Source: Desulfomonilaceae bacterium (GTDB lineage Bacteria > Desulfobacterota > Desulfomonilia > Desulfomonilales > Desulfomonilaceae). Taken from it: a stretch of 46,449 nt of DNA. The notes under the pieces are model-generated. The model did not search any database, was not told where the DNA came from, and saw only the letters and a program-made list of their open reading frames with translations. The stretch is from assembly GCA_052144015.1 (NCBI GenBank), contig JBKQRG010000380.1:1-46449 (forward strand), in the 5' to 3' direction. Below are positions 5,530-31,011 of this stretch, in pieces; positions within the stretch are counted from its first letter, which is position 1, and the number at the start of each line of letters is the position of its first letter. Both the position numbers and the translations under genes were made by a program.

Positions 5530-5547
5530 TGTCTTTTTGGTCGGCTC

Positions 5548-5817
5548 TTAGTGGTCGGATCTGAATCCTATCGCGCGGAACTCACCCTGCTCGTTTCGGA
5601 AATCCACCGTGACCCATCTGCCCAAAAAGGGCGCTGCTTGAAAGCGGCGATCCCTATTGACTCGGATGACGACAAGCTTGTCATTAGAGTCACGAAGTGT
5701 CACACTTTCCAGATCTACTCGTTCAAGTCTGCCGGCAAATTCATCAGCCGCACAGAGTAGAGGAGAGCTTAATAACCCTGTGAACGCAATCACAATGGCC
5801 AAACAACGACCCATCAT
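5548..5817 (-). CDS. small secreted hypothetical protein
   Basis: A GGAGGA RBS lies immediately upstream of the MMGRCLAIVIAFTGLLSSPLLCAADE signal peptide. No recognisable domain. Confidence 0.4.
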   Translation of the reverse strand: MMGRCLAIVIAFTGLLSSPLLCAADEFAGRLERVDLESVTLRDSNDKLVVIRVNRDRRFQAAPFLGRWVTVDFRNEQGEFRAIGFRSDH

Positions 5818-6191
5818 GTCTTCCTCCATTCGACCTCTAACACCACATGAACCCGGTAGCTCTCCATAATGAAAAGCCCTAGGCAATTACACAATACAAA
5901 TCATTTTCTAACCTGCTGATAATGATAATCGACTGTACTCAATCTTTCAACCTCTCATTTCAGCCCCCAATCGCTAGACGTTCAGCCTGATTTCGTTGAC
6001 AGGCCGAGGTCGTTTTGTACAAGATTAAAATAATGCACCCTATATTATAGGCATATGTGAAGCAGCCACCATGCTCGGGGTCCCACCCACGGCATGATTC
6101 GTAGAAGGATGAAGGCTGCCTTAATATAGCTAATTATAGTGCGCCGCATTTTTCCGAAATAGCTCTTGCCCTTATATGGGAGGCCATACGG

Positions 6192-6584
6192 ATGGAAGCA
6201 CCGGAAGATCGACTGTATTCACAACATCATCTTTGGGTAAAATTGGAGAAAGATCAGGCTGTAATCGGGATAACGGATTACGCGGCCGAAGAAATTGGAG
6301 AAGTGGATTATATAGAACTTCCCGAACCGAATGACACCGTCTCGAAAGAACGGGCCTTTGGCGCTCTCGAAACCAGCAAAGCGATAACGGATCTCATTTG
6401 CCCGATTTCGGGCGTTGTCTTGGATTGCAACATGCTGCTAACCGAATCGCCGGAAATGGTGACGGATGACCCTTATGGTGACGGTTGGCTAATGGTACTG
6501 CAACCTTCCGATCCGGACGAATGGGACGATCTAATGAAAGCCGGCGATTATGAAAAGCTGGTTAGAAGCGCAGTGGAAGAATAA
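6192..6584 (+). CDS. gcvH: glycine-cleavage H-protein-like lipoyl carrier (stand-alone)
   Basis: 130 aa with a GcvH-like fold signature. LWVKLE...VIGITDYA and ALETSKAITDLICPISGVV contain the candidate lipoyl-lysine. There is no gcvT or gcvP nearby. Confidence 0.7.
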   Translation: MEAPEDRLYSQHHLWVKLEKDQAVIGITDYAAEEIGEVDYIELPEPNDTVSKERAFGALETSKAITDLICPISGVVLDCNMLLTESPEMVTDDPYGDGWLMVLQPSDPDEWDDLMKAGDYEKLVRSAVEE

Positions 6585-6602
6585 AAGTCGGGCGGTTCCG
6601 CG

Positions 6603-7640
6603 CTACATTAAATTTCTAAACGAATTGCCTGTGATATAAATAAAATTAGCTCTGATGCGAATCCGTTTGGCGGTTAGCCTAGGGGGAAACGGATAAAAAG
6701 GAGCGGCTGATTTGATGGCCTTCATGGCGGATTCATCAAGTACCGTATGGCCTGATGAATCCAGCAAAGTAACTCCCAAAAGTTGTCCTTCTTTCGAGAT
6801 CAAGAATTCCAACATCAAGCTTCCGCCTATGCCGGCCCTTGCGGCAACCGTCGGATATATCCAGACTGCTTGAATCTTTTGTTTTAAATGTTGAAGATAG
6901 GAAAAGAAATTTACTTCTCTTGTATTAATGTCAACAACCGGTTCGTCCGGACTACCATCCGGGTAGAACTCCGTAACTCCACCCGATGTTGAGAGACCTT
7001 TTGCTATTTCGGCGGGTGTAGGTCTCAGATCTATATGCCTATTGGATAAATCACTTTTTGGTGCCCGAGAATGCAATGGCTCTTTTACAACACTAGGTTT
7101 TCTCACGGGTTTTTGTGCTGGTGTAGGATGATCTGTCTTTTCTTCTTTGTTTAGCTTATCATCCTTCGGTTTTATGAAATCTTCGGGCGCCATAGGAGGG
7201 GGCAACGCAGCAAGCCTTTGAGGTTGAGGCTCCACGCTTCCTAATGGAGGTCTCGGATCCGGCAAAGCTTTGGGTAATCGTTGCTTTTCCGCGATGTGAT
7301 CTCTGTCCGATATGGCTGAAGCCACTTCAGGTGGTGGTTCCTGCTTTTTTTCTGGAGAGTTGAATTCGACCAGCCTGACCGGCGTTACTTGGTCCCCCGT
7401 ATTCATAAACGGTTTAACCGGCGCAAAGCCGGCCAATATGGGTAAAGAAGCGAAGAATGCCACGTGCAATACTACTGAAGCAATAATGCAGTATCTTAAT
7501 GCCCTGTCGCTCGGCGAATCTGTTATTTCAGGTTGGCTGGATCGAAGCTCGGCGACCGAATCTTCATCAAGTGAATCGTATTCTTCATTCACCATCTGAT
7601 CGATATCATTTTCTAATTTTGTGCTATATGATAAATTCAC
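6603..7640 (-). CDS. TonB-family energy-transducer protein
   Basis: N-terminal TM segment, a long Pro/Lys/Glu-rich spacer (PPPEV...PKALPDPRPP...) and a C-terminal TonB domain (KIQAVWIYP...GIGGSLMLEFLISKEGQLLGVTLLDSSGHTVLDESAMKAIKSAAPFYPFP). Confidence 0.7.
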   Translation of the reverse strand: MNLSYSTKLENDIDQMVNEEYDSLDEDSVAELRSSQPEITDSPSDRALRYCIIASVVLHVAFFASLPILAGFAPVKPFMNTGDQVTPVRLVEFNSPEKKQEPPPEVASAISDRDHIAEKQRLPKALPDPRPPLGSVEPQPQRLAALPPPMAPEDFIKPKDDKLNKEEKTDHPTPAQKPVRKPSVVKEPLHSRAPKSDLSNRHIDLRPTPAEIAKGLSTSGGVTEFYPDGSPDEPVVDINTREVNFFSYLQHLKQKIQAVWIYPTVAARAGIGGSLMLEFLISKEGQLLGVTLLDSSGHTVLDESAMKAIKSAAPFYPFPPRLTAKRIRIRANFIYITGNSFRNLM

Positions 7641-7802
7641 CTGATGTCAAGCCCTTCACTTGTTTAAGCAACCCTTACTTGAAGAAGACTATTTAACTTT
7701 AAGTCAGCGGCGTCACTGTCATGATAAATCTTTTTTGAAATTTGACAACCATTATCAACAGCGCCCACCATGATTTGCGCAAATAAGCGCTCCAAAAGCG
7801 GT

Positions 7803-8744
7803 TCAGGCCCAATGCTTTGCTCTTACATGCCGGGAATAAAGGCAGTAGCTCGCCGAATCCGTAGGAGGTCGGTTGTCGGAACGGATCGGGCTTGCATTGG
7901 CATAACAGTAAACACATCCGTGATAACACGTATCATACGCGCCGATGTCCAATGAAGCAGCGCATCCGCACTCTTTTCGTGTCGGCGCTATTTTGAGTTT
8001 GTTTATCGCCTCCTTTTTTTGGGCGGAATCCACGACCTCCAACAAATAATCCGGATCGATACACCTGGCTTTGGCAATCTTGGATGACACCAGAAAGTCA
8101 TGAGAGCATGACGCGAGAGAAATGCCTTGTTCGGCTGCAAGTTCGGCCATTTCTTCCCCCATGTCCTTGCAAAATGCCGCATCCGGTCTTACATGGGTTG
8201 GAACGAAAGTTTCCATGTTTCGTATGGTCTTTCTGTAATAATCACAGAAGCTGAAGATGCAAATATTTGTGTATTTGGAAAATTTTTCACACAACTTACG
8301 AAAATTTTGGATATGCCACTTCCGGTTCAGGGCATCGGTTAGAACTATGGTGTCATAGCGCCAACGCAATATTGGACCAGGAAAGCGGTCCGTCAAATCA
8401 TTCAGAACTTGCAAAGTTAGACCGAAATCGGGGACACAAGGTTCCAAGGAAATCGGATAATTGTTTATTGTGTACAAAAAAGTGAAGCAATAGCCCTTTC
8501 TTTGCAGTTCGGCAAGATGCTCTAGAATAGGGGCTGCATTCTTTGTCCAAAAAATAATGGCAGACACATCTTCGGGCACCAAGGATATTTCCGATATGCC
8601 GCGTCCAAATGGAGAGACGACTCCTACCCTGCCGGAACGTATTCGGTTCATAAACCAATCGGCGTGGAACGCTGGAATATCGGTTCTTCTGCTTGCCGAA
8701 ATTACATGCATTGGTTTGTCTTTCATGCCGCAAAAGTTAGTCAT
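7803..8744 (-). CDS. DUF1848-like protein with a C-terminal CxxxCxxC motif
   Basis: ISASRRTDIPAF near the N-terminus resembles the DUF1848 signature, recalled from memory and not verified. The C-terminus has CYHGCVYC, a radical-SAM-like cysteine triad. The gene is divergent from recA. Confidence 0.45.
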   Translation of the reverse strand: MTNFCGMKDKPMHVISASRRTDIPAFHADWFMNRIRSGRVGVVSPFGRGISEISLVPEDVSAIIFWTKNAAPILEHLAELQRKGYCFTFLYTINNYPISLEPCVPDFGLTLQVLNDLTDRFPGPILRWRYDTIVLTDALNRKWHIQNFRKLCEKFSKYTNICIFSFCDYYRKTIRNMETFVPTHVRPDAAFCKDMGEEMAELAAEQGISLASCSHDFLVSSKIAKARCIDPDYLLEVVDSAQKKEAINKLKIAPTRKECGCAASLDIGAYDTCYHGCVYCYANASPIRSDNRPPTDSASYCLYSRHVRAKHWA

Positions 8745-9995: not shown

Positions 9996-11088
9996 TGAAA
10001 CCTTGAAAAAAGCCATAGAAATGGGCGCGTCCGACGTTCATTTAAAGGTCCCGTTGCCTCCGGTGACAAGGGTCAATGGCGTCTTGGCTCCCTTGAAGGG
10101 TGAAGATCGTCTTACGCCCGACGAAGTTAAACGGATAGCACTGTCTGTCATGAATGAACGTCAGAGGGAGATTTTTACTAAGACCAGGGAATTAGATATG
10201 GCCTACGGGGTCAGCAAATTGGCCAGATTCCGAGTCAATGTTTTTTGGCAAAGGGACTCTATCGCAATGGTTTTTCGCGCAATTCCCTCTGAGCCGCCTT
10301 TGCTAAAGGACTTGAACCTGCCTCCCATCGTTGAAAAAATAAGTGCAGAGAACCGAGGTCTTGTTCTGGTGACCGGGACAACGGGATCAGGCAAAACCAC
10401 AACCCTGGCGTCCATGATCCATCAGATCAACTCTTTTCGCAACTGTCATATTATCACCATCGAAGATCCAATTGAATTCCTGCATAGAGACCGCAAAAGC
10501 ATTATTAACCAGAGAGAGGTGGGGCAGGACACACTTTCATTCCAAAATGCCCTGCGTTCAGCGCTCCGCGAGGACCCGGATGTCATCCTGGTAGGTGAAA
10601 TGCGTGACCTGGAAACAATCGAAATAGCTATGCTTGCAGCAGAGACGGGGCACCTTGTGTTCAGCACGCTCCACACGCTCGATGCTACCGAAACGATCAA
10701 CCGGGTTGTCTCGGCTTTTCCTATGGAGCATCAGGCATCCATCCGAATCCAATTGGCTGGGCTAATAAAAGGGGTAATTTCACAGAGACTACTGCCCAAG
10801 GCTGACGGTAATGGACGAATTCCCGCGATTGAAGTGCTCATATCAACAGCCCGAATAAGGGAATGTATTGGCGAGGAGCGGAGGTTACGCGAGATCAGGG
10901 ACGCCATAGCCGAAGGCCACATAAGCTACGGTATGCAAACGTTCGATCAGTCATTGATGCAATTGTTCCAGCGGAAGCAAATTACATACGATATTGCTTT
11001 GGCCGCAGCATCGAATCCTGATGACTTTGCTCTGTTTGCTAGGGGAATTACAGGCACCTCCGAGGCCAAATGGGAGATGAATGCTTGA
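9982..11088 (+). CDS. pilT: type IV pilus retraction ATPase PilT
   Basis: Walker [29 protein letters not shown], and the FSTLHT His-box typical of PilT/PilU secretion ATPases. Its start overlaps the recA stop by 14 nt. Confidence 0.9.
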
Positions 11089-11159
11089 GCCGCCCCTAAT
11101 GAAGAAGACTATTCGCATAACATTCTGAATCACAGAAGTGAATAGCGGAGGAAGACGTA

Positions 11160-11582
11160 GTGAACGAATTTAAGGTCATGCTTGTTGATGACGAAAAAGA
11201 TTTTTTGGAAACGCTCTGCAAAAGACTTACAAAACGCAAGTTAGATGTTACTTCGGCCAATAGTGGACGAGAAGCCATAGCCAAAATACAAGAATTTCCT
11301 GTCGATGTAGTGGTGCTTGACGTCAGGATGCCCGGCATGAACGGAATAGAAACATTGAAGGAAATTAAAAAGATAAAACCTTCAGTGGAAGTCATCATGC
11401 TTACGGCCCATGCCGATGTCCAAGTCGCTATAGAAGGGATGGAATTAGGGGCATTCGACTACCTTATGAAACCTATGGAGATCGATGACCTTCTTTATAA
11501 ATTGCAAGACGCGTACAAGAAGAAATGGTGCCGTGAAGAAACCGAAAAATGCGAGTTGCCGCCATCTCTTCAACTGAGCTAA
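11160..11582 (+). CDS. single-domain response regulator (CheY-like receiver)
   Basis: Receiver-domain residues are present: DDEKDF (acidic pocket), the phospho-acceptor in VVVLDVRMPGMNG, T in IMLTAH, and K in YLMKP. Confidence 0.8.
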   Translation: MNEFKVMLVDDEKDFLETLCKRLTKRKLDVTSANSGREAIAKIQEFPVDVVVLDVRMPGMNGIETLKEIKKIKPSVEVIMLTAHADVQVAIEGMELGAFDYLMKPMEIDDLLYKLQDAYKKKWCREETEKCELPPSLQLS

Positions 11583-11834
11583 TTCTCTCTATGCTGTGTG
11601 TCTGAATTGAAAACTTGCGTCGCTCCGGTTAATATTTATAGAAATGCGAAGGCTTTTTGACGTGTAAAACATCTGATAATTTTCACGAGTTTTCTATTAT
11701 CGATATGCCCAATTATTCGATGGGATTATCTAGAATGTTCGGGGGACCTGGCGTTTCGCCTTGCTTTGGTAAAACTTAGCATTTCCGGAACGGTTATTCC
11801 GTGGCTGTCGATAAATTAATGAGGAGGAAAATGC

Positions 11835-13115
11835 ATGAAAGTGGGTAAGAACCTGTACCGGATGCTCATGGCTGCCTCAATGGCCCACGCGAAGTGGGAT
11901 TACGAGACATCCATGAACATATTGAAAGACAAAAAAAGAGTATATTTATTGGGGTTGATGTTGCTGCCGGCAATTTTCACCTCACTGGCCTTGGCTGCGG
12001 AATTGCCGAGTGTTTTGGGCGGACATGAAGCCTATACACCCGCGTTTTATTCCACGAACATATTTATCGTTTCCATTCTGGTGGGACTTTGCGCTGGGCT
12101 GATCACCGGCTGCATCGGAGCGGGCGGCGGTTTCATAATAACCCCTGCGCTTATGAGCGCAGGAGTAAAGGGTATTCTTGCGGTAGGAACCGATTTGTTC
12201 CACATATTCGCGAAAGCCATTATGGGAACAGCCATTCATAGGAAGCTGGGAAATGTGTCAGTCGGTTTGGCAATAGCCTTCTTAGTCGGCTCCGGCATAG
12301 GAGTGACCGGCGGAGGTTTCATCAACAGAGCTCTTTATGAATACGATCCCGTTGTCAGTGATGCTTTCATAAGTGTCGTTTACGTTGTGCTGCTGGGATT
12401 TCTAGGATTTTACTCTTTGGCCGATTTTCTTACGCTCAGAAAGGCAGAGGCCGGTGTCGGCGCCCATGTCGGAGAAAGCGTCCATGGCGAAGAGGTAGCA
12501 ACGGGCAAGGTTGGACTTCCGGCCAGATTGCAATCCTCCACGATTCCGCCGGTCATCACTTTTGACGAAGACCTAGTTCCGGGAGGCAAGAAGATCCCTG
12601 CCCTTTTTGTTGCTGTTTGTGGAGCTATTGTAGGCTTAATGGCAGCGATCATGGGGGTTGGAGGAGGTTTTATCACTTTCCCGATCTTCGTGTATGTCCT
12701 GGGAGTATCTTCATTCACAACTGTGGGGACAGACATACTGCAAATAATTTTTACCGCTGGTTACGCATCCATTGCGCAATATGCGGTCTACGGGTTTATC
12801 TTTTACACTCTGGCTATGGGCATGCTGTTGGGTTCTTTGATAGGAGTTCAAATAGGCGCCCTTACGACAAAAGTAGTCAAAGGCATTTATATCAGGGGAT
12901 TTTATGCGACTGCTATTTTGTCCGGCTTTGCAAACAGGTTTTTTGCGCTACCGGAAAAACTCAATCAGATGGAGGTCATTCGGATTTCAGATTCTTTGGC
13001 GTCCGGCCTGAGCCAAATAGGCACATGGGTCTTTTTCGTGGTCGTAGGAATATTCGCCATATGGGTTCTGGGAAAATTCTTTGGCAGCATAAAATTCCTG
13101 AGAGGGGAGGTGTAA
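11835..13115 (+). CDS. TauE/SafE (DUF81) family anion exporter-like membrane protein
   Basis: Two copies of the DUF81 glycine motif (GCIGAGGGFIITPAL and GVGGGFITFPIF) are separated by a soluble insert. There are multiple TM helices. Confidence 0.7.
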   Translation: MKVGKNLYRMLMAASMAHAKWDYETSMNILKDKKRVYLLGLMLLPAIFTSLALAAELPSVLGGHEAYTPAFYSTNIFIVSILVGLCAGLITGCIGAGGGFIITPALMSAGVKGILAVGTDLFHIFAKAIMGTAIHRKLGNVSVGLAIAFLVGSGIGVTGGGFINRALYEYDPVVSDAFISVVYVVLLGFLGFYSLADFLTLRKAEAGVGAHVGESVHGEEVATGKVGLPARLQSSTIPPVITFDEDLVPGGKKIPALFVAVCGAIVGLMAAIMGVGGGFITFPIFVYVLGVSSFTTVGTDILQIIFTAGYASIAQYAVYGFIFYTLAMGMLLGSLIGVQIGALTTKVVKGIYIRGFYATAILSGFANRFFALPEKLNQMEVIRISDSLASGLSQIGTWVFFVVVGIFAIWVLGKFFGSIKFLRGEV

Positions 13116-13119
13116 TAAC

Positions 13120-13827
13120 ATGTTGGTCAAACAAAAGGGGACGTTCATAAAAGGATTGGTTATGGCAGTCGCTTTCTTGGTAGTTCTGATCATCATGTTT
13201 TCGCCTATATTCGGCGGACAAAATGCCATGGTAGCTGCAGATAAACTTTTTAATTCGATTGCCAAGGGCTCTACAAACTACTTCCCCGGCCTGCTGCAGA
13301 AAAATGCGGAATATGCGAATAAAATGTTTGATGTGAACCTTAAATTAAAGGACCAGGACATGGCACGGAAGGCCGCCAAAATAGTGACCGCGGCCGGTGC
13401 CAAATCTACGGGAGAAACTGCGGAAATCAAAGTAAACGGGGATTTGGGCAGCGTCGTTTCCGCGGCGCTGAAAGATTCCGAGGCTATGTTCAATAATCGT
13501 GAAACCGAGCTGTCAGGCAAGTATGGGATGCCGGGTCAAGAAGCGCTGTACGTCTGGTGGAACGTGTTCAAGGAAATTGACAAAGATCTGACTAGACAAA
13601 AACAGTTCAAGGAGGCCAGCTTTGTGGCGGATGTCGTAAAAAAAGGTATAGAAGTAGCTTACAACTTTGCCAAAATCGAGCCTGAAAGCGCGGCATCCAG
13701 AATGGGCATTCTGAGCTTCTCGTTAATCTTTTATGTTATTTATACATTATGGTGGGGACTCGCGGTCATGTACATTTTTGAAGGAATCGGTCTGCAAATG
13801 ACCGCCGGGGCTAAGAAAGAAATGTAG
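13120..13827 (+). CDS. hypothetical membrane protein, probably co-transcribed with the TauE-like gene
   Basis: A 4-nt gap separates it from the upstream gene. It has an N-terminal TM (LVMAVAFLVVLIIMF) and a C-terminal TM (ILSFSLIFYVIYTLWWGLAVMYIF). No recognisable domain. Confidence 0.5.
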   Translation: MLVKQKGTFIKGLVMAVAFLVVLIIMFSPIFGGQNAMVAADKLFNSIAKGSTNYFPGLLQKNAEYANKMFDVNLKLKDQDMARKAAKIVTAAGAKSTGETAEIKVNGDLGSVVSAALKDSEAMFNNRETELSGKYGMPGQEALYVWWNVFKEIDKDLTRQKQFKEASFVADVVKKGIEVAYNFAKIEPESAASRMGILSFSLIFYVIYTLWWGLAVMYIFEGIGLQMTAGAKKEM

Positions 13828-14115
13828 GTTTATCTTTACTGGGCTTTTACATTTAATGCGTTAGTCTCTACAAACTTGTCCCCATAAGCAATCGGCAATC
13901 TTTCTGTACGGGCGACCGATGGTCGCCCTTCCATTAAGATGCGTTGAACGTGAGTTGTAGAATTACCCGGAATGTGGCTGGTTTCATACTGCCCCTGATG
14001 CCCGAACATGGTTCAAAAAACAATTTTGCGCTTCCGTTGTCTTCGAAGGTGAAGGATTTTATATCAACCTTCATTCTCTAATAACTCAAAAAATTGCACT
14101 AATCGTTGCGGAATT

Positions 14116-16794
14116 ATGACCAGAATAGCCGAATTCATAAAACAAACCATATTACGAATCTTCGGAAAAGACGATCATGCAGCCGGTTTGCAGGATGTCC
14201 GTGCAGCCTTTGCCTCCAGATACCACAATTTCAAGCTTCTTCTTACGGCGAATAATAAGGCTCTGGAAATCATGAGCGATCTGGAGAAGGCCCTTGACGG
14301 CACGCAGCCGTTCGGAATGTCCTTTATAAAATCTAACTGCACTGCCATTTCCGTAAATTTGTACAAAATAATCAAGCACCTAGACGAATTGGCGCCGGGA
14401 AAATACGGCGAGTTGTACAGTCGCTTCAAAACTATTCGGGATGCTATCGACCAGAATCTTGTTCAAAAAAAGCTCCCCAAAGGGGACAAACTTGTATTAC
14501 CTTTCCGCTCCATTGACAGCACGATGGTCGATCAGGTGGGGAGCAAAATGGCCAATGTGGCTGAAATTGCCAATCAGGTCCATTTGCCTGTTCCCGGCGG
14601 ATTTGTAGTGACATCTCTGGGATATCAACGATTTGTAGAACATAATGAATTACAGCAAGAGATCGATCGGCGTATCCAAGCTGCAAATGCCGAAAACCTC
14701 CAAGAATTGTACAGCTTGAGTGCGGATATCCAGCAGCTGATAATTCGCTCATCGGCCCCTAAAGATCTTGAAACAGCCATTCTGGAAGCATACGCGGAAC
14801 TGGAAAAAGATTTTGGCCAAGACGTCAAGGTATCAGTTCGCAGCAGCGCTTTGGGAGAGGATGCAGCTGGGAGATCCTTTGCGGGACAATTCCGAACTCA
14901 ACTGAACGTCAGTCACGATAATCTTGTAGACGTTTACAAAGAGATAGTGGCCAGCAAATATGGTTTGCCCGCCGTGACATATAGACTCAATAGAGGCATC
15001 CCGGACGAAGATGTCGCTATGTGTGTCGGATTTATGCCCATGGTGGATGCAGTCGCCGGCGGTGTAATGTATTCGAGGAATCCCCTGAACATTCGAGACG
15101 CATCAATCATCATTAATTCCGTATGGGGATTGGCCAGGGCGGTTGTGGATGGGAGCGTTGACCCGGACGTGTTCGTAATTGCCAGATCCCAGCCTATGGA
15201 AATAATTGAAAGAAATATCAAGCTTAAAGAATTGCAATTTGTTTGCGATCTTACTGAAGGCGTGTGCCGGATGACCCTGACCGGCGACAAAGGCGGTTCT
15301 CAATCCATAAGCGATGATCAGGCTTTGGAATTAGCGTCGATGGGCGACAAATTGGAGCAATATTACGGTTCACCCCAGGATATAGAATGGGCAGTTACAC
15401 CCGAAGGTTCGATCTATATTCTTCAATGCAGACCGCTCAAGCAGCTGCAAATGGCTCATACTACAATAAAATCATCTGGTCGTGGAGAGATCGCGGAGCC
15501 ATTTATCGCCCGTGGAGGTGTTACTGCTTCCCCGGGCGTAGCCGATGGCCATGTTTTCGTGGTTAAGAACGATGTGGACAAGCTGAAATTTCCGGAGGGG
15601 GCAGTTTTGGTAACCGCCCAATCGCTTCCTCGGTGGGCCCCCTTGTTGGGCAAGGCCTCCGCTGTAGTCACTGAGATAGGTGGAGTTGCGGGTCATCTCG
15701 CAAACGTTGCGAGGGAATTCGGAGTGCCTGCGGTTTTCGGTGTTCCACTAGCGACTGAAATCATGAAGAACGGCGAGATAGTCACGGTCGATGCTGATGG
15801 AATGACCGTATATCAGGGTCGAGTGAAAAGCTTATTAGCTTCGAATGAGGGTAAAAAAAGGCTGATGGAGGGCAGCCCTATTTATGAGGTCCTGCATCGG
15901 GTGGCGGCTCATATTGTTCCCCTAAACCTTCTCGACCCGGATTTGCCGGAATTCCGTCCATCAAAATGTCTCACCTATCATGATATCACGCGGTTTTGTC
16001 ATGAGAAATCTGTCCATGAAATGTTCAATTTCGGAAAAGAGCATCATTTTTCTGAACGTTCCAGTAAGCAGTTAGTGTGCAATGTTCCGATGCAATGGTG
16101 GATTATTAACCTGGATGATGGATTTAGACAGGACGTGGAAGGTAAGTTCGTCCAGCTTGACAACATAATCTCGATACCCATGCTTGCAATATGGGACGGA
16201 GTGACAGCGATTCCTTGGGGTGGACCGCCTCCAGTTGATGCGAAAGGATTGATGTCGATTTTGGTTCAGGCTACTCACAATCCTGCACTGAATCCGGCTA
16301 CGGCTTCTGCTTATTCGGCCCGGAACTACTTCATGTTATCTAAGAATTTTTGTAGCCTCACGTCTCGATTCGGCTTCCATTTCTCCACTGTGGAAGCACT
16401 TGTGGGCGAACGGGCATCGGAAAACTATGCGAGTTTCTCTTTCAAAGGTGGTGCGGCCGATTTTGGTCGACGACGAAGGCGGGCGGGGCTTGTGGCCGAA
16501 ATCCTGGAAAATTTCGATTTCCGTGTTGAGGTTAAGGAAGACAGCGCGTTTGCCCGGATTGAGGGGCTCGACGAGGAATCGATGAAAATCCGTCTGAACA
16601 TTCTGGGATATTTGATTATTCATACGCGTCAATTGGATATGGTCATGTCCAGCGATGGTTCACTGCAGGAATATAGGGGAAGACTCCTGAAAGACATAGA
16701 ATCTATTGTTCGTGCTAAATCATCGGTAAAGCAGGAAAGCTCTGTTGGACCTTCCATCCACCAACCCGCTGCTCTTGGGGAAACCGTTAATTAA
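14116..16794 (+). CDS. PEP-utilizing enzyme family protein (PEP-synthase-like ATP-grasp plus mobile His domain, non-canonical C-terminal domain)
   Basis: The N-terminal PEP/pyruvate-binding domain (VGSKMANVAEIAN...VPGGFVVTS) and the central mobile domain GGVAGHLANVAREFGVPAVFGV (phospho-His) are present. The C-terminal ~330 aa do not look like the usual TIM-barrel. Confidence 0.75.
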   Translation: MTRIAEFIKQTILRIFGKDDHAAGLQDVRAAFASRYHNFKLLLTANNKALEIMSDLEKALDGTQPFGMSFIKSNCTAISVNLYKIIKHLDELAPGKYGELYSRFKTIRDAIDQNLVQKKLPKGDKLVLPFRSIDSTMVDQVGSKMANVAEIANQVHLPVPGGFVVTSLGYQRFVEHNELQQEIDRRIQAANAENLQELYSLSADIQQLIIRSSAPKDLETAILEAYAELEKDFGQDVKVSVRSSALGEDAAGRSFAGQFRTQLNVSHDNLVDVYKEIVASKYGLPAVTYRLNRGIPDEDVAMCVGFMPMVDAVAGGVMYSRNPLNIRDASIIINSVWGLARAVVDGSVDPDVFVIARSQPMEIIERNIKLKELQFVCDLTEGVCRMTLTGDKGGSQSISDDQALELASMGDKLEQYYGSPQDIEWAVTPEGSIYILQCRPLKQLQMAHTTIKSSGRGEIAEPFIARGGVTASPGVADGHVFVVKNDVDKLKFPEGAVLVTAQSLPRWAPLLGKASAVVTEIGGVAGHLANVAREFGVPAVFGVPLATEIMKNGEIVTVDADGMTVYQGRVKSLLASNEGKKRLMEGSPIYEVLHRVAAHIVPLNLLDPDLPEFRPSKCLTYHDITRFCHEKSVHEMFNFGKEHHFSERSSKQLVCNVPMQWWIINLDDGFRQDVEGKFVQLDNIISIPMLAIWDGVTAIPWGGPPPVDAKGLMSILVQATHNPALNPATASAYSARNYFMLSKNFCSLTSRFGFHFSTVEALVGERASENYASFSFKGGAADFGRRRRRAGLVAEILENFDFRVEVKEDSAFARIEGLDEESMKIRLNILGYLIIHTRQLDMVMSSDGSLQEYRGRLLKDIESIVRAKSSVKQESSVGPSIHQPAALGETVN

Positions 16795-17325: not shown

Positions 17326-17988
17326 TTGTTAGCGCGGGTTCATTCCGGCACGCTGATCGGGATTGATGCTCACCCAGTGGAGGTCGAAGTCGACGTTTAT
17401 CCGGGGATGGCTTCCATAGCTGTGGTCGGGCTGCCTGATAATGCGGTGAAAGAAAGCACCGCTCGGGTAAAATCGGCTATAGTGAATAGCGGATACCCCT
17501 TTCCTGTCCGGCGTATTACGGTGAACCTGGCTCCGGCCGACCTCAAGAAGGAAGGCGCGGGCTTTGATCTTCCTATAGGCGTGGGCATGCTTGCCGCGCT
17601 AAATCTTCTCCCTTCCGACAAACTCAATGATTACATGATAGTGGGTGAGCTGGCCCTTGACGGCCGCATTAAAGCGGTTCGAGGAGCCCTGAGTATCAGC
17701 CTGGCTGCACGTGAACTCGGTTTCAAAGGTCTCATTTTACCTGCGGCCAATGCCGCGGAAGCCGCGGTGGTTGAAGGCCTAAATGTCTATGGTGTTTCAG
17801 ACTTTCTCACTACAACAGGTTTTTTGATGGGCCGAGTTCCGCTGGAAGCTGCGGCGCCTGCTGTGTCCAAACCATCAGCACGTTTCTCCAGGTATCGTGT
17901 TAATTTCAGCGAAATAAAGGGCCAGGAATTCGCAAAGCGAGCAGTGGAAGTGGCTGCCGCCGGCGGTCACAACGTGTTCATGCTATGA
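17326..17988 (+). pseudogene. comM: comM/yifB (Mg-chelatase-like competence protein) 5' portion, interrupted by an insertion
   Basis: The N-terminal Lon-like domain of YifB/ComM is present (ARVHSGTLIGIDAHPVEVEVDV...VVGLPDNAVKES.ARVKSAI). The ORF stops at ...GGHNVFML*, just before the expected Walker A. The remainder is found at 30136. Confidence 0.85.
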
Positions 17989-19281: not shown

Positions 19282-19608
19282 TTATGAGCCAAGAGTTTCG
19301 TCAAGGCTTTTCTCATCCTCGCTGGCGGGCAGAAGTCCCTCTTTGGTAAGGTCCTGTTCCAGTTTCGCCTCGGCTGCTTCCATACGTTCAGCCGCACTTC
19401 GCAGAATTATTTCCGTTCGCTGTCCGGATTCGTTGATCCTTCTCAGCAGCCCGCCCATTCTCATCGCTCTGGCTTTGAACATATTGGCGGTTTCTTCAAG
19501 AAACTTGCCGATTACGCCCGAGTTGGGCGGTTGAAGAATTACTTCTGTGGACGGCTCATACGGAACCAGCTCGGCCGGTTTACAGTTGGCTTCTTTGCTT
19601 CTCGGCAT
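19282..19608 (-). CDS. hypothetical protein (element recombination operon)
   Basis: An AGGAGGG RBS lies directly upstream of the ATG. The 108-aa protein has a charged, helical C-terminus (AAERMEAAEAKLEQDL). Confidence 0.55.
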   Translation of the reverse strand: MPRSKEANCKPAELVPYEPSTEVILQPPNSGVIGKFLEETANMFKARAMRMGGLLRRINESGQRTEIILRSAAERMEAAEAKLEQDLTKEGLLPASEDEKSLDETLGS

Positions 19609-19623
19609 AGTAATCCCTCCTTT

Positions 19624-20382
19624 CTACCATTCGGCGCATTCTTTTGCCCAGGCGCACTGGCTACAGTGCCAGTCTTCACGTGGGAACCATACGCCCTGCT
19701 TAATACCGTTCCATACCTGATAGAGCAGTTTGACGAATCGGTGTCGGTCATCTTCGGTGCGGCTCGTGTCGTACCTCACCATCTCTGGGGTCTTGGACTT
19801 CGTCAGCACGTCCAGCCGCAAGTTCAAAGCATCCTGCTCAAATCCCAATACGTCAGCTCCCAACGAGTAGGCCGTCAACTGAAGATTGCTTTTAACGCTT
19901 GCATCGGTCAATTTCTTGGAGGCGGTCTTCAGATCAACAATGGTGATGGTTCCGTCTGCTGACTCCTCGATCAGATCGATGTAGCCTTGGAAAGACGGTA
20001 GCCTGTCCAATGGGGCTTCAAAGAATTCTTCCACGCCGACTATGGAAACAGATGGATCGTAAGCCTCATGGAATACGGTCAGCAACTGATTGGCCTTCTG
20101 CATCAGGGAGTTCTCATTATCGCCGTTGAAGAACTTGACCCGTTCTTTGCTCATCCAGGTATCCCGATAAACGTCCAACAACTGATCGGGACGTAGCGCA
20201 TCACCTTCCAAACAGCTTTGGTAAAACGCTGCTGCCGCCTCGTGGATCGCTGATCCAAATGCCAGTGATGCTGTGGTAAATGCCGGAGGTATTTGCTCAA
20301 CGTATTGGAAACGATAGCGCAGCCCACAGGTCATGTAGGTGTTGATCTGGGAATAGCTCAGATGAGGCTCTTCTTGTGTCAT
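19624..20382 (-). CDS. Cas4-like / RecB-family PD-(D/E)xK exonuclease
   Basis: YSQINTYMTCGLRYRFQYV (N-terminal Cys plus a motif I-like segment), IDLIEES...IVDLKT (D...D/ExK core) and a C-terminal CSQCAWAKEC cysteine cluster, as in Cas4-type Fe-S nucleases. An AAAGGAGA RBS is present. Confidence 0.75.
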   Translation of the reverse strand: MTQEEPHLSYSQINTYMTCGLRYRFQYVEQIPPAFTTASLAFGSAIHEAAAAFYQSCLEGDALRPDQLLDVYRDTWMSKERVKFFNGDNENSLMQKANQLLTVFHEAYDPSVSIVGVEEFFEAPLDRLPSFQGYIDLIEESADGTITIVDLKTASKKLTDASVKSNLQLTAYSLGADVLGFEQDALNLRLDVLTKSKTPEMVRYDTSRTEDDRHRFVKLLYQVWNGIKQGVWFPREDWHCSQCAWAKECAEW

Positions 20383-20469
20383 GGCGCTGTTCTCCTTTCT
20401 AGGGGACAGAACGCACCTATCCTGTCCCCCTAATGCGCTTGTCTGTGTTTTCGATAGTTGTGTCTGGAA

Positions 20470-21144
20470 CTAAGCGGCGGCTTCTGTTTGCAGAGTGGTG
20501 ATAAGATGCGAAGCAGATTCACGGGTGAGGTCTTGGAAGGTGGAAGCGTTTAGCGGGCTCAGCATAGACCCAATGTCTTCATCGGTGTAATTCGCTCTTT
20601 TGGTGAGGGCATAAAGGGCTCGGCATTGAGCTTGGGTAGCTCGACCATTGCCGCCAGTTGACGGTTTTGATTTCTCCGCCGTAGCGCAATGTAGCGCTTC
20701 GGGTTTTGCTCCGTCCTTGCCAGCGCCATTGGCTTCATAGAACACTGATGCAGCCGGTTTGTTGGAACTTTGTTGGCTTTCTGACTCCGCCGGCGCAACG
20801 TGCGATACCTCTTCGGCACTGACAAATTCCAGCCCAAAACCGGCAAACCTGAGCGCCCGAGCGACGCTTCTGGTCTCGGCTAACTCAATAAGGCTCTCTG
20901 CCAGCCTTGCATCTCTTTGGCTGTTTGCGGTGCCGTAGCCGACGAACTGACCTTTGCTGGTAGCAGCACTACATTTGAAGATGGCATACTGACCGTCCCA
21001 GCTCACCATCTCAGTTTGCAGGTTGAGATTCTGGTTTTCTTCATGTGCTAAACGCAGTCTTCCACCAACGACCGGAAATACCCTGCTCTGACCGTTCACT
21101 TTTCTGGTAATGAGTTCGTCTTCTCGAAATCCGTTCGTACCCAT
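20470..21144 (-). CDS. putative Rad52/Sak-like single-strand annealing protein
   Basis: GYGTANSQRDARLAESLIELAETRSVARALRFAGFG resembles the Rad52-family core (G.G......A.E.A.T.A..RAL..FG). It sits immediately upstream of the nuclease, in a classic exo plus annealase pairing. An AAAGGAG RBS is present. Confidence 0.45.
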   Translation of the reverse strand: MGTNGFREDELITRKVNGQSRVFPVVGGRLRLAHEENQNLNLQTEMVSWDGQYAIFKCSAATSKGQFVGYGTANSQRDARLAESLIELAETRSVARALRFAGFGLEFVSAEEVSHVAPAESESQQSSNKPAASVFYEANGAGKDGAKPEALHCATAEKSKPSTGGNGRATQAQCRALYALTKRANYTDEDIGSMLSPLNASTFQDLTRESASHLITTLQTEAAA

Positions 21145-24592: not shown

Positions 24593-26128
24593 TCACTCAA
24601 ACTTGACCTCAAAAGGGACATCCAAATCAGTTGCGGTGGTCATCACTTCCTTTGATATTGCCATTGCATCCCTCGTTTCTTCTTCCGGTGATTCAATCCA
24701 AATGGAATCGTGAATCATCATTACTATGCGGGACTGCATACCTTTTTCACGGAATGCCCGGTCGATAAGCACCATCGCACGCTTCACTATGTCAGCCTCA
24801 AATTGCTGCAATGGAGTGATGCGGATTTTTCGTTGCTCGTGGTCGGTGAGTCTATTGGCAAATCGGCGTACCCTTCCAAAAGGAGACGCATATGCCCGCT
24901 CATTTCTTTTCTGCTTTTTGATTTGACCGACTGTTGCATCAAAGAAATCCCCCGCTCCGGCATAGGTTTTGAAGAATCCATCAATGTGAAGTTGTGCTTG
25001 TTCAACGCCTATGCCCAATTCGGCCGCCAATGATTCAGCGCCTTGTCCAAAGCAGATCCCGAAATTGATGCTTTTTGCTTGCTGTCGGCTAACTCCTAGC
25101 TTCTCAGCGGTCTTTGAATGAATGTCCTCTCCGCGGCGAAAAGTTTCTTTGAGTTGCGTATCGCCGGACAAATGTGCGAGGAGGCGCAGCTGCATTTGAG
25201 AATAATCCGGCTTTAGCAGCACGCATCCCGGAGCTGCTTTTAACAACGGGCGATACTTTTCCTTGCTTATGGACTGGACGGGCACCACCTTACTGAAAAT
25301 TCTGCCTGTAGCGCCCCTTGTTTGTCGCCATACTGGGTGTATCCGATCTTGACCAGCGGCTCTTTCCAAGAAACTCAAGTCCTCCTGTTTGATGCGCCAC
25401 CATTCCAATATCTGCGCCACAAGAGGAATGAAGGAGAAATCCTCTAATTGGGCACCGGGATACAAGGATACGCCCCTTTTTTGGAGGAACTGATAAACTT
25501 CCGTCTTGGAAGATAGGTCTACAGGCTCACCTTGTGTTATCTCCTGTTCCCGATCCTTCAGCCGAGCGTCTAAATTTTTCAATTCTCGGGTACAGGCATC
25601 GCCGTCAACACCGACTCCGTCCAGATGCATCCTTGCCAAAATCGGAACTAATAGCAATTCAACCTCTTGATAGAGCCGCCACAGTGAATCATTCATCAAA
25701 GAGCGCAGCTTGGACGCCAAATCATAAGTGAACTTTCCATCTTGAGCCAATAAATGCCATAAGGCGTCCTTGTCCAGATCACTTATGATTGGCACTCCGT
25801 GTGGATAATCGACTCCAAGGTATTTTTGTACCAGGCGGCTAAGACGCGGTTCGTCATCAGGATCAAGCAAGTAAGCCATCAATTTGATGTCGTAAACCGG
25901 ATGAGCAGCAAAATTCCAATCCGGTATACCCGACCATTCTAAAATCCGTTTTAGACCGTGCACCGCTACTATATTATTATTTTTACTACTAAATACGTCT
26001 TCTTCCACATTCTTAATTTCGTCTCCAATCATAACGAGGTCTCCTAATCCTGTGGTCTGGCCGTATGAACGTATGAGTACACGGTCATTCAGGAGGATAG
26101 GAGGCGATATGGCTAGGATTGAGTTCAT
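24593..26128 (-). CDS. family-A DNA polymerase, Klentaq-like (no 5' nuclease domain, vestigial 3'-5' exo)
   Basis: By-eye alignment to my recollection of Taq Pol I: YDIKLMAYLLDPDD (Taq DPMLLAYLLDPSN), motif A PDYSQMQLRLLAHLSGD, motif B RQQAKSINFGICFG, and motif C MMIHDSIWIE. The catalytic Asp residues are retained. Unusual substitutions are noted in the findings. Confidence 0.85.
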   Translation of the reverse strand: MNSILAISPPILLNDRVLIRSYGQTTGLGDLVMIGDEIKNVEEDVFSSKNNNIVAVHGLKRILEWSGIPDWNFAAHPVYDIKLMAYLLDPDDEPRLSRLVQKYLGVDYPHGVPIISDLDKDALWHLLAQDGKFTYDLASKLRSLMNDSLWRLYQEVELLLVPILARMHLDGVGVDGDACTRELKNLDARLKDREQEITQGEPVDLSSKTEVYQFLQKRGVSLYPGAQLEDFSFIPLVAQILEWWRIKQEDLSFLERAAGQDRIHPVWRQTRGATGRIFSKVVPVQSISKEKYRPLLKAAPGCVLLKPDYSQMQLRLLAHLSGDTQLKETFRRGEDIHSKTAEKLGVSRQQAKSINFGICFGQGAESLAAELGIGVEQAQLHIDGFFKTYAGAGDFFDATVGQIKKQKRNERAYASPFGRVRRFANRLTDHEQRKIRITPLQQFEADIVKRAMVLIDRAFREKGMQSRIVMMIHDSIWIESPEEETRDAMAISKEVMTTATDLDVPFEVKFE

Positions 26129-26460
26129 TGATTGTTGAGATTAAGTAGTGTTAACAAACACGTATTTATATGTATTTGATATTGTGAGCAATCATTCTTT
26201 GATTGAATGCGTATCTGATTTCTTTCCAGTCTATCTTCATTTGGCTGGTTAGATTCTGAATAAACAATAATCAGAGTGAATGAATATACATATGAATATC
26301 TATCTAGTAATACAGGCTATACCAGCATAGAGTTCCTGCTATCAATAGCGAGAGGGAGCGGCGGGCGGGTACTATACTACTATTATTCCTAATTGGTAGC
26401 AAAATGAGATTTGTCCAATTACTGCTAGAATTTCTCAATTGGGAGTTGCATTGAAGATCA

Positions 26461-28282: not shown

Positions 28283-30139
28283 ATGGGGAAAACGGTAGTT
28301 TCCACTGGTGCAACCACTCAAGAACAGCCAGTTCCAGACACGCTGGAAAATCAGCCTAATGCCAAAATAAATGCTCCTGGCAGTAAAATAGGCGCTTATA
28401 TCCGTGTATCTACCCAGGAACAGGAAGCGCAAGGCACCCAAGAGGCTCAAAGAAATGCTATCAACACCTTCTGTCTTTCTCGTGGGCTAGATGTGCAGGA
28501 ATGGCTCGAAGAGCAAGAAAGCACCCTGAATTTTGAAAGACCAAAGTTTAGAAGGCTCCTAGAACAGGTCCGCTCAGGAGAAATCAGCACTATTGTGGTA
28601 GCTGCTTTGGATCGTTTCTCCCGTGATCAAATAGAGACTCTACAGGCTGTTGAATTGATAAAAAAGGTAGGAGCCTCTTTTTATTGTATCAGAGACAATA
28701 TTAATATTACCAATGGGAAAGCTGATTTTGCTTCTGAAATGGTCATCAGTGTGATGAGTCTCTTTGCACGGAATGAGCGAGAAACTATAAAAATTAGGAC
28801 GATGTCCGGAAAACAGCGAAAACAGCAGTCTGGAAAATGGATCACCGGACAAGCGCCCCTTGGTTATGAATTAGACAGACAGACCAAAATCCTTAGAGTC
28901 AATAGCGCAGAAGCAGCTATTGTGAGGCATATTTTCAATCTCAGGCTGGACGGAAGAGGCGGGATAAAAATTGTTAAACTCCTTAACTCAGCGAGCCCCC
29001 CTTACGAAAGGCGATATCAATTCAGAGGCTCTAGATACTGCCAAGTCAGCCAAAAACAAAGAACGGCTTCTTATTGCAGGGTGCGTTCTCTTCATGATGC
29101 TTATAAACCATGTTCTGGCTGCGTACTACAGAATGATGCAATTGATATTACGGGAACGTCCTGGTCCCTTACCCTAGTGAAGAAGGTGCTAAAGAATCGG
29201 GTATATTTGGGAGAACTTAAGATTGATGGTAAATGGAGTCCTGGTGCTCATAAACCCATAATTGATAAGGCCACCTTTGATACGGTGCAGGACTTGCTGC
29301 GAAAAGCATACCGCCAGCCATATGAATTCTATCCTAAGAATCCTCTATCTGGATTGGTACATTGTGGTTGCGGTAGGCGCATGTATGCGACTGCCAGTTT
29401 TCACACTCAAAAGAAAACGGGGAAACCAGGCACAAGATATTGGGCTTTTGTGTGTCCTAGAAAAAAGCTTGGAAAATGCAACCAACCGAATGTACCCATA
29501 CCGATGGTAATGAAACTCCTATTCAAACGCATAGATAGGATTCTTCAGAATCCCGAGACCGGTGAGATTATTAAGCAGGCCTATGAAAGGATTCTTTCCG
29601 AGAGTAAAGAGAGTGAGCCTGATACAAAGGAATTGAAAAGAGAGCTACAGGAAATTACCCAGGAATTAACCCGTTTGACACGTGCGTATACTCAGGCAAC
29701 ACTGGCTGGAATCAAGGATGAAACTCTAACCGAGCTACTTGACCGGATTAAGATTTCAGAAGAGCGCAAACAAAACATTGACACCAAAATAAAATTTTTG
29801 GACATTCAGAAAAACGAATTGAAAGACGAACTACAGGCCCTATCGTATGAACAACTGATAACCCAGCTTTCCAATCTGTGGATGTACTTTTCAAAGGAAC
29901 CCCTGAAAGGCAATGAGGTTGTGGGGCGAATGATTAGAGCATTTGTAAAACGAATAGAAACGACGCTACCAACAGAAAAATTTCCAGAGCACCGTGGACT
30001 CCGGATAACCCAAAGATTTGATAAGAAACTTTTGGAGCAGCCACTAAATCAGCTGCTCCAAGCTGTTATGAGACTGCACAGATTGGGCAGAAATCAGCCG
30101 CACATGGAGGCTGCAACACAGGACCGATCATCCTCATGA
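28283..30139 (+). CDS. large serine recombinase (integrase)
   Basis: N-terminal resolvase domain [10 protein letters not shown] (catalytic Ser) and LDRFSRD, a recombinase domain, a zinc-ribbon (CGCGRRMY...C) and a long coiled-coil. Its stop codon (30137-30139) overlaps the resumed comM ATG. Confidence 0.9.
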
Positions 30140-31011
30140 TCGGTCCGCCGGGATCAGGCAAGACAATGATTTCCCAGCGTATTCCCACCATTCTGCCTGA
30201 GCCGATATTTGACGAGGCCATTGAAACTACGAGGATCTATTCCGCAGCAGGACGCCTGGGACGCAACGGATCGATCATGACTATTCGGCCGTTCCGCTCT
30301 CCGCACCATACAGTATCGGATGCAGGCCTTATAGGCGGTGGGATGATACCTCGGCCCGGCGAGGTTTCGCTGGCCCACAATGGGGTGCTCTTTCTGGACG
30401 AATTACCCGAGTTCCGCAAGAACGTGCTGGAAGTGCTCCGGCAACCATTGGAAGATGGTCAAGTCACGATATCCCGCGCGCAGATTGCGATTACATTCCC
30501 CGCCCGGTTCATGATGGTAGCTGCCATGAACCCCTGCCCGTGCGGGTACCGGGGAGATCCTAAACACAATTGTAACTGTTCGGCACAAACCATACAGCGC
30601 TACTGGAGCAAAATTTCAGGCCCATTACTGGACAGGATAGATATCCATCTGGAAGTTCCTGCGGTAGAATGGCGTGATCTTACGGCCACGAAGGATGCAG
30701 AATCCTCGGAGAACATCAGGGGACGCGTCAGTGAAGCACGGCAGATTCAGCTCGCACGTTTGGCAGGGACCGGATTATATTCCAACGCTCAGATGGGATC
30801 GCCCCAGATTAAGAAATTCTGCCAATTATCAGATCAATCCATGTCATTTTTGGAAAAGGCGGTGGAAAAGCTAGGGCTGTCGGCCCGAGCGTATCACCGC
30901 ATCCTAAAGATCGGCAGAACCATTGCGGACCTGGAAAAGGCTGAACATATCCAAACAGCCCACATCGCCGAAGCCGTGCAATATAGATCTCTCGACAGGC
31001 GGTATGATTGA
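30136..31011 (+). pseudogene. comM: comM/yifB 3' portion (AAA+ Mg-chelatase domain), separated from its 5' part by the insertion
   Basis: Starts [11 protein letters not shown] (Walker A), followed by [10 protein letters not shown] (Walker B), the Zn-finger-like [15 protein letters not shown] and the C-terminal Mg_chelatase_C region. Joining it to 17326..17982 gives ...[17 protein letters not shown]... in frame. Confidence 0.85.

Follow-up and report, generated by a model that had tools for sequence, protein, structure and literature searches.

A mobile-element clade of family-A polymerases with a replaced active-site triad, and its candidate replication role in Desulfomonilaceae

The window analysed here, a stretch of 46,449 nucleotides (contig JBKQRG010000380.1, positions 1 to 46,449 of the forward strand, in the Desulfomonilaceae bacterium assembly GCA_052144015.1), contains a 12,156-bp integrative element that encodes a 511-aa family-A polymerase, here called PolA*. 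It carries Gln, Phe and Ser at three active-site positions, namely E710, Y766 and E883 in the numbering of the Klenow fragment (KF), and replacements at these positions run through a small, so far unclassified clade whose active-site signature is new relative to the literature searched. The gene is typically preceded by a second one, its partner, coding for a Cys-cluster/winged-helix protein. That the two together constitute the replication module of the element is a proposal whose chances we see as evenly poised; for it we infer the catalytic activity of PolA*, its role in replication, its priming and its sugar selectivity.

The active site of PolA* and its clade

The open reading frame (ORF) of PolA* is intact and cannot be extended further upstream. 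PF00476 (DNA_pol_A) is its sole Pfam domain, with 199.5 bits against a gathering cut-off of 34.3 over residues 226-510, and the same Pfam scan matched neither PF02739 nor PF01367 of the 5'-nuclease domain. The protein falls far below the NCBIfam equivalog cut-offs for Pol I (224 versus 600 for TIGR00593; 233 versus 720 for NF004397), and a phmmer search of PDB chains recovered the Klenow, Klentaq and Bst large fragments with E-values of about 1e-35 to 1e-32 (2e-35 for the Klenow chains). When aligned with proofreading-active Pol I, residues 1-150 correspond to the 3'-5' exonuclease fold minus its catalytic residues: the DxE of Exo I is absent, the NxxxD of Exo II has become HGLKR(I/V/M) and the Tyr of Exo III is lost. 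The absence of a 5'-nuclease and the vestigial exonuclease had both been noted in the first-pass annotation of this DNA, which was made by eye against Taq Pol I, and both observations stand. An AlphaFold2 model (35 relatives) reached a pLDDT of 90.3 and a pTM of 0.90; in Foldseek it superposed on Klentaq and Bst along its whole length, with TM-scores of 0.75-0.80 to the Bst large fragment (LF), Klentaq, Klenow, Pol theta and Pol nu (about 0.78 to Bst LF and Klentaq). PolA* is a Klentaq-like family-A protein with the Bst/Klentaq fold.

The residue register was set by the phmmer alignment to the Klenow fragment chains. In motif A, DYSQMQLR lies over DYSQIELR, which places Q313 at the steric gate E710 (Taq E615); in motif B, NFGICFG over NFGLIYG places F360 at Y766 (Taq Y671); and in motif C, IHDS over VHDE places S475 at E883 (Taq E786). 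The Q/F/S triad first read by eye is in its proper columns. All four strings quoted at that stage were located in the protein (PDYSQMQLR at 307-315, RQQAKSINFGICFG at 348-361, IHDSIW at 472-477 and YDIKLMAYLLDPDD at 79-92). Likewise kept, as had been claimed, are the catalytic Asp residues and the equivalents of Taq R659, K663, F667 and H784: D308 (D705), D474 (D882), R348 (R754), K352 (K758), F356 (F762) and H473 (H881). The alignment, the strings, the dead exonuclease and the model agree, and the initial observation is thereby confirmed. The residues affected are not minor ones: E710 and Y766 have been termed 'universally conserved within A-family polymerases' and the hydrogen bond between them 'invariant' (Hohlbein 2013, PMC3715850), while E883 is grouped with D705 and D882 as a catalytic residue (review, PMC10520511).

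A homologue search of 5.8 billion proteins yielded about 34 short PolA-only proteins of 500-570 aa that are 37-61% identical to the PolA* of the window, with canonical Pol I following at about 30%. In the alignment of these proteins the gate Gln and the motif-B Phe are unvarying and motif C is HDS or HDA. The clade is small: in a profile search of 1.84 billion representatives at 50% identity, only about 18 clusters outscored the best canonical Pol I. We realigned 266 collected PolAs to the clade profile (hidden Markov model alignment); 192 of them have E/Y/E at the three positions, whereas all 40 clade members have Q/F followed by Ser (25), Ala (14) or Cys (1), a contrast that chance does not come near to explaining. 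Outside the clade lie a sister group with Q/Y/G or Q/Y/A (P0129, P0132, P0133, P0137) and a further group with E/Y/G or E/Y/A (P0078, P0142, P0149). The triad thus belongs to a distinct clade and not to ordinary Pol I fragments, and its replacement is a character of that clade rather than decay.

Further changes accompany the triad at columns where Pol I is 96-100% fixed: N675 is replaced by Pro or Ala, G850 by Gln, A852 by an invariant Glu and Q879 by Met (the PolA* of the window has P283 at N675, Q442 at G850 and E444 at A852). The same column-by-column contrast with Pol I shows that the clade keeps R668, Q677, R841 and Q849 along with the catalytic residues. The catalytic Asp and Lys and R712 are present in every full-length member, and the lone departures elsewhere are R754 to Tyr (P0018), F762 to Tyr (P0125) and H881 to Tyr (P0127). 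Two segments at the junction of thumb and palm are shortened: the stretch from the last thumb helix to the RVH strand counts 21-22 residues in the clade versus 26-27 in Pol I (5 shorter), and the span from R668 to R690 counts 17-18 versus 23 in 188 of the 192 Pol I, since 5-6 residues are deleted within the KF 681-686 segment. The triad singled out in the first-pass annotation is part of this wider remodelling (N675P/A, G850Q, A852E and two deletions of about 5 residues), for which the best precedents are the CcPol primase and T7 RNA polymerase (RNAP). Within the shortened 681-686 equivalent, E290 of PolA* (codon about 25259-25261, minus strand) is a Glu where 36 of the 40 clade members have Arg or Lys. 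A separate departure at the gate was seen in 15 otherwise canonical full-length Pol I (P0040, P0045, P0051, P0055, P0068 and ten others), which have Asp (D/Y/E) and whose named sources are Desulfobulbaceae or Thermodesulfobacteriota metagenome-assembled genomes (MAGs), so that even among housekeeping Pol I the 'universal' Glu has its exceptions.

In a scan of 185,579 species genomes, nearly all occurrences of the clade fell in MAGs of Desulfomonilaceae, 'delta proteobacterium', Syntrophaceae and Desulfatiglandales, together with one Dissulfurispiraceae MAG. A single MAG may hold up to five PolA* loci, and several copies are truncated or frameshifted (frameshifts in the loci L021, L028, L029 and L040). 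Additional fragments of PolA* or its partner lie a few kb from intact copies in L014, L017, L027, L028 and L040; together with the frameshifted copies, they suggest tandem or nested insertions and the ongoing decay of some copies.

None of the 19 PolA subfamilies delineated previously is described with the properties of this clade (Czernecki 2023, PMC10201439). The same study reports Phe at the position of Y766 (B4 of motif B) only for two DpoZ clusters, as a unique substitution. The phiVC8-like and Wayne-like DpoZ share this Phe with PolA*, but are phage enzymes and not element-borne, and membership of PolA* in DpoZ was rejected on its NCBIfam scores (70.8 versus a cut-off of 500 and 20.3 versus 350). 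The only defence model matched in PADLOC was RTasPolA (PDLC03816; 92 bits over 475 positions, E 1e-26; 78-140 bits for the relatives), and since this score lies below the generic Pfam score it probably reflects general PolA homology. UG9 reverse transcriptases (RTs) are associated with a PolA (Mestre 2022, PMC9226505) which, like PolA*, is short, stand-alone and outside the housekeeping role. Assignment of PolA* to UG9 or to the defence-associated reverse transcriptase (DRT) systems was rejected on these scores; in addition, no UG9 RT is adjacent in the window or in related loci, and the partner is unrelated to PADLOC models. The clade adds to the specialised family-A polymerases known from mobile elements, among which CcPol is its nearest analogue.

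The element, the partner gene and the intergenic DNA

The element interrupts comM/yifB, a Mg-chelatase-like competence gene, within its P-loop codons. The N-terminal part of comM (17326-17988) ends at position 27 of the Mg_chelatase profile and the C-terminal part (30136-31011) starts at position 27; the insertion is flanked by TCATG at both ends, and joining the attL and attR junctions restores a 15-residue stretch of the ComM protein. The element is an integrative one with a large serine recombinase (Table 1), as the first-pass annotation had surmised in speaking of a small integrative replicon. The same comM site is occupied by a related element in MAG contig CAVUIT010000014 (L003/L005), where the serine recombinase is broken up over three frames.

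That annotation had also drawn attention to a decayed RT next to the polymerase. A group II intron-type relic of about 40 aa is indeed present, but it is incidental, and related elements do not conserve it; the neighbour that is truly conserved is the Cys-cluster/winged-helix protein of 375 aa encoded upstream. Among the loci with upstream sequence, a homologue of this partner precedes PolA* by 190-330 nt on the same strand in about 20, and the linkage extends to the sister Q/Y/G clade (hhalign probability 99.7%), with no partner match at the E-value used in L013, L016 and L021. The linkage of PolA* and partner looks obligate. Across the 57 relatives of the partner, C116, C165, C170 and C175 are invariant within FSCRSxxCxRxxC, a pattern that suggests a putative metal cluster. 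The AlphaFold2 model of the partner, predicted to be mainly helical, has a mean pLDDT of 65 and is poor in the N-terminal half; in Foldseek nothing but the C-terminal winged helix was recognisable, akin to those of GntR, MarR, Crp or plasmid initiators, and no match was significant, while PHROG gave faint matches to DnaD-like loaders and replication initiators (E 0.004-0.008).

The DNA between the two genes is itself conserved. Two motifs, TACTTCAACTT and CATACC-N-TA, characterise the intergenic regions of the family, in this order: TACT(T/G)CAACTT directly after the stop codon of the partner, then CATACC..TA, then a C- or G-rich tract. In some loci the CATACC..TA block takes the form of ATAC-N6-GTAT or of repeats at 10-bp spacing. 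The blocks are seen for example at 26129-26460 of the window, L004:9749-10000 and L050:24957-25203, and the copies in the window are CTACCAATTAGGAA and CTCCCAATTGAGAA, at 26386-26399 and 26432-26445. RNAalifold predicted 0 pairs on nine related intergenic regions, and a retron- or DRT-like non-coding RNA between partner and PolA* was rejected on this ground. The region is rather a candidate protein-binding operator or origin, to judge by its conserved motifs.

Between this region and the partner gene lies a chimeric 112-aa ORF. Its residues 4-37 share 59% identity with the N-terminus of a 597-aa PolA* (L046) of the type that follows the closest relatives of the partner in the window, and its residues 41-107 share 52% with the C-terminal winged helix of a partner (that of L001). 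From this fusion it follows that the element in the window is a recombinant of two related elements, with a partner and a PolA* from different lineages, both ORFs being intact.

Across a family of integrative plasmids and elements in Desulfomonilaceae and their neighbours, in which the integrase is of either the serine or the tyrosine type, PolA* belongs to the core genes. Recurring in the related loci are the integrase (adjacent in most), small proteins of the HTH_17 or MerR type, and a pair formed by a 224-aa protein and a PD-(D/E)XK nuclease, while AbiE, HEPN_AbiV, Mrr, ankyrin and CD225 genes make up a varying cargo. A free member of the family is pDESTI.01, the circular 26.9-kb plasmid of Desulfomonile tiedjei DSM 6799 (NC_018026.1, L050), on which a tyrosine integrase gene is found together with those of the partner (WP_014813322.1), a PolA* of 569 aa with Q/F/A (WP_014813323.1), a 217-aa protein and a PD-(D/E)XK nuclease and with a 104-aa ORF, along with ParA, RNase HI, AbiE and cargo. 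The module thus exists both integrated, as in comM, and on a free replicon. The PLSDB gene table of this plasmid, which is incomplete, names no gene as a replication initiator.

A proposed replication module, its precedents and its rivals

PolA* is a folded and probably active nucleotidyl transferase. According to the proposal, it would initiate and extend replication of the excised circle together with the upstream partner, which would bind the conserved intergenic motifs and deliver the polymerase. The remodelled pocket (E710Q, Y766F, E883S/A, N675P/A, G850Q, A852E and the shortened 681-686 segment) lacks two carboxylates, those of E710 and E883, as well as a steric block, the 681-686 segment, near the sites of the primer and the incoming nucleotide; we take this for an adaptation to starting synthesis on an initiating nucleotide, or on a primer that is short or made of RNA, with weaker sugar discrimination and lower fidelity as its likely price or purpose. 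The case for a replication module is built on the clade-wide conservation, the linkage to the partner, the place in the core of mobile elements, the presence on pDESTI.01, the conserved intergenic DNA and the binding data for Klenow E710Q. The reading as an initiator draws on the 681-686 segment, shortened as in PolA-SSB primases and T7 RNAP, on the Y766F and E883A of CcPol and on the IHDS of T7 RNAP. The bolder step, that PolA* starts chains de novo and/or uses ribonucleotides and so occupies a functional middle ground between DNA polymerase I and single-subunit RNA polymerases of the T7 type, we advance only tentatively, as a possibility that would go somewhat against expectation.

The closest precedent for such a mechanism is offered by CcPol-MP of the staphylococcal SCC/SCCmec elements, in which a family-A polymerase acts with a small subunit resembling a single-strand-binding protein (SSB) and primes de novo (Bebel 2020, PMC7581432; Rice 2023, PMC10061031). 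Like PolA*, CcPol is encoded by a core gene of an integrative element with a large serine recombinase, is accompanied by a second DNA-binding protein and lacks the 5'-nuclease. In both PolA-SSB primases and T7 RNAP the KF 681-686 segment 'VRNEEG' has been marked as shorter, and its relevance to the binding of the first nucleotide has been pointed out (Rice 2023 Fig. S4, PMC10061031); it is shortened in PolA* as well, and no indel separates CcPol from the clade profile there. Furthermore, S. aureus CcPol has SFLFGG (Y766F) and IHDA (E883A) in the supplementary alignment of the same paper (Rice 2023, PMC10061031), two replacements that it shares with the PolA* clade. The differences are equally clear: CcPol, found in Bacillota and not in Desulfomonilaceae, has lost most of the exonuclease domain, whereas PolA* keeps the whole inactive fold; its partner MP, whose gene lies downstream and is followed by that of the helicase Cch2, is a small SSB with an OB fold, whereas that of PolA* is a Cys-cluster/winged-helix protein of 340-375 aa encoded upstream, without a helicase; and it keeps the steric-gate Glu where PolA* has an invariant Gln.

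The second precedent lies in T7 RNAP, whose motif C is IHDS (H811-D812-S813, checked on PDB chains), just as at residues 472-475 of PolA*. The gate residue of T7 RNAP is Gly, and its Y639F change reportedly permits the use of dNTPs. T7-like RNAPs resemble PolA* in this motif C, in having no steric-gate Glu and in a shortened equivalent of the 681-686 segment (Rice 2023, PMC10061031), but T7 RNAP has a large N-terminal promoter-binding domain where PolA* is plainly Klentaq-sized, with Gln and Phe, and no RNAP chain was among the matches of the phmmer search of PDB sequences with PolA*. With Klenow, Klentaq and Bst LF, PolA* shares the fold (TM about 0.78), motifs A, B and C, both catalytic Asp and the Arg, Lys and Phe of the O-helix, and with Taq and Bst also an inactive 3'-5' exonuclease fold; what sets it apart from Pol I are the replacements and the two deletions described above, and, unlike housekeeping polA, it is encoded by an element and in multiple copies. 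Pipolins with their primer-independent PolB are likewise small integrative elements that bring their own polymerase, of family B versus family A here, where the priming is putative.

The effect of the gate Gln can be gauged by analogy with Klenow mutants, in which Y766F is close to wild type and E710Q acts as a mutator and incorporates nucleotides at a low rate; for E710Q the Kd1 for dTTP rises from 5.1 to 120 uM and that for rUTP goes from 210 to 126 uM, so that the two are about equal (Hohlbein 2013, PMC3715850). By this analogy, the gate Gln of PolA* may relax sugar discrimination, as the first-pass annotation had suggested. Several observations weigh against the replication-module proposal. 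Both E710Q in Klenow and the loss of E883 reduce catalysis (PMC3715850, PMC10520511). CcPol keeps E710 and primes with dNTPs only (Bebel 2020, PMC7581432), and so the Gln is without precedent in a primase; moreover, the clade profile gives S. aureus CcPol 35 bits and canonical Pol I up to 319 bits, a distance at which the shared substitutions may be coincidental. There is neither a helicase nor a known primase among the genes of the 12,156-bp element, nor is either conserved in the family, so that replication would lean heavily on host factors. As the partner model is poor, with only the winged helix recognisable and no significant structural neighbour, its role as an initiator is a guess. The partner in the window is of the type usually paired with a PolA* of 591-597 aa, and this particular pair may hence not be co-adapted. 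Finally, the GC skew of pDESTI.01 revealed no origin.

Other explanations have to be set against the same body of evidence. The loss of E710, Y766 and E883, three residues termed universally conserved or catalytic, and the slow incorporation by Klenow E710Q (PMC3715850) could point to a catalytically crippled pseudo-polymerase with a structural or DNA-binding role, for instance as a scaffold or regulator acting with the partner. Yet both metal-binding Asp, the Arg, Lys and Phe of the O-helix, R668, Q849, R841 and H881 are invariant or nearly so across sequences of 37-61% identity, and the retention of the catalytic residues across so divergent a clade is hard to explain without catalysis; in addition, CcPol with Phe and HDA is an active polymerase and primase, and T7 RNAP functions with HDS. 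We hold this explanation to be very improbable. A low-fidelity repair, translesion or gap-filling polymerase, borne by the element for the damage survival of element or host or for diversity and with no part in initiation, would agree with the dead exonuclease, the missing 5'-nuclease and the mutator character of the E710Q allele in Klenow (PMC3715850). Exo-inactive auxiliary bacterial PolAs with a probable repair role do exist, namely APEX 1/2 (Czernecki 2023, PMC10201439), and the conserved PD-(D/E)XK nuclease and 224-aa protein could be a recombination or repair module. For a repair enzyme, however, the strict linkage to a DNA-binding partner and the conserved intergenic motif are unexpected, the clade is confined to mobile elements with several copies per genome, and the shortened 681-686 segment combined with Y766F and E883A points to initiators; we accordingly give repair only a small chance.

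A defence function, finally, would have the pair act against phages or other mobile genetic elements, the partner sensing infection and PolA* making an aberrant product (untemplated, ribo-containing or error-ridden), as might be envisaged by comparison with defence-associated RTs and their PolA. The RTasPolA match and its tie to UG9 RTs are in keeping with this, as are the AbiE, HEPN_AbiV, Mrr, BREX-like ATPase and CD225 genes that adjoin the pair in related elements, and the same possibility has been raised for the PolA-SSB primases (Rice 2023, PMC10061031). Yet the RTasPolA score is the generic one discussed above, the partner matches no PADLOC model, and no RT is conserved nearby, the window having the 40-aa relic and L002 an ordinary group II intron. 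What is more, the pair is fixed beside the integrase in every element and present on the plasmid while the evident defence genes vary, and therefore it behaves as core and not as cargo. We regard defence as an improbable function of the pair.

Should the bolder step to de novo initiation and/or ribonucleotide use hold, PolA* and its zinc-cluster/winged-helix partner would form a primase-replicase of two proteins and of a new kind, through which a class of integrative plasmids would be self-synthesizing, and the gate Gln, the loss of the E710 and E883 carboxylates and the invariant Glu at A852 would be the signature of a re-designed nucleotide pocket. A whole natural clade here replaces E710, Y766 and E883 while the rest of the catalytic set stays under selection; if active, these enzymes are an experiment of nature through which sugar selection, fidelity and the initiation of chains can be studied within the Pol I fold. 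[quoted passage not shown] The module of PolA* and Cys-cluster/winged-helix partner is previously undescribed and resides in the integrative plasmids of Desulfomonilaceae, a poorly studied organohalide-respiring group of which a cultured, plasmid-bearing member allows testing.

Other features of the element and its relatives

Table 1. Features of the comM-inserted element, with positions in the window
Feature	Position	Strand	Remarks
attL crossover core TCATG	17978..17982		end of comM N-terminal fragment
Conserved small ORF, 108 aa	19282..19608	-	homologous to the 104-aa gene after the nuclease in pDESTI.01, L020, L040 and L046
PD-(D/E)XK nuclease, 252 aa	19624..20382	-	Cas4-like, phage exonuclease-like; conserved
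Core gene, 224 aa	20470..21144	-	homologous to proteins with weak Slr1353_N matches and to phrog_11717
Cargo gene, 468 aa	22197..23603	+	inverse-autotransporter beta domain at 20.5 bits versus cut-off 22.3; no conservation in relatives
Group II intron-type RT relic, about 40 aa	23773..23964	-	motif 6/7 only; outside conserved module
MerR-family helix-turn-helix (HTH) protein, 74 aa	24339..24563	+	convergent with PolA*; recurs downstream of PolA* in related elements
PolA*, 511-aa family-A polymerase	24593..26128	-	exo-dead, without 5'-nuclease; from ORF, Pfam, alignment and model
Partner-PolA* intergenic region	26129..26460	-	family-conserved DNA motif twice, then C-rich tract
Chimeric ORF, 112 aa	26461..26799	-	recombination scar
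Partner gene, 375 aa	26973..28100	-	no Pfam family; C116, C165, C170, C175; C-terminal winged helix
Large serine recombinase, 618 aa	28283..30139	+	Resolvase + Recombinase + Zn_ribbon_recom; stop codon overlaps attR; element right end
attR crossover core TCATG	30134..30138		start of comM C-terminal fragment

The 224-aa gene and the nuclease gene occur as a pair in 10 related loci and on pDESTI.01; the 224-aa protein has no PDB relative by sequence and no Pfam match at E <= 0.01. With the ORF of about 105 aa, the two form a trio on the minus strand (19282-21144) that accompanies the PolA* module in many elements and in pDESTI.01 and may be a recombination module. The 468-aa cargo protein appears to be specific to the element in the window, which also contains two more small ORFs without an assigned function. 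The sequence of the RT relic ends in ...HPDKTCMGRIEKGFDFLGYHF, without the upstream RT motifs and without an Rfam intron match. Rfam (at gathering thresholds) and ARAGORN gave no match in the window, and a scan of 24.2-28.4 kb for sigma-70 promoters and terminators found sites no more numerous than in shuffled sequence.

In pDESTI.01 (L050), RNase HI, the ParA partition pair and AbiEi/AbiEii are encoded at 4670-5113, 7164-8452 and 5185-6947, respectively, with two BREX-type ATP-binding proteins and a DEAD helicase at 11051-15641. RNase HI is absent from the other loci examined; on the plasmid, beside a 5'-nuclease-less and gate-changed polymerase, it may be meaningful for the processing of primers or R-loops.

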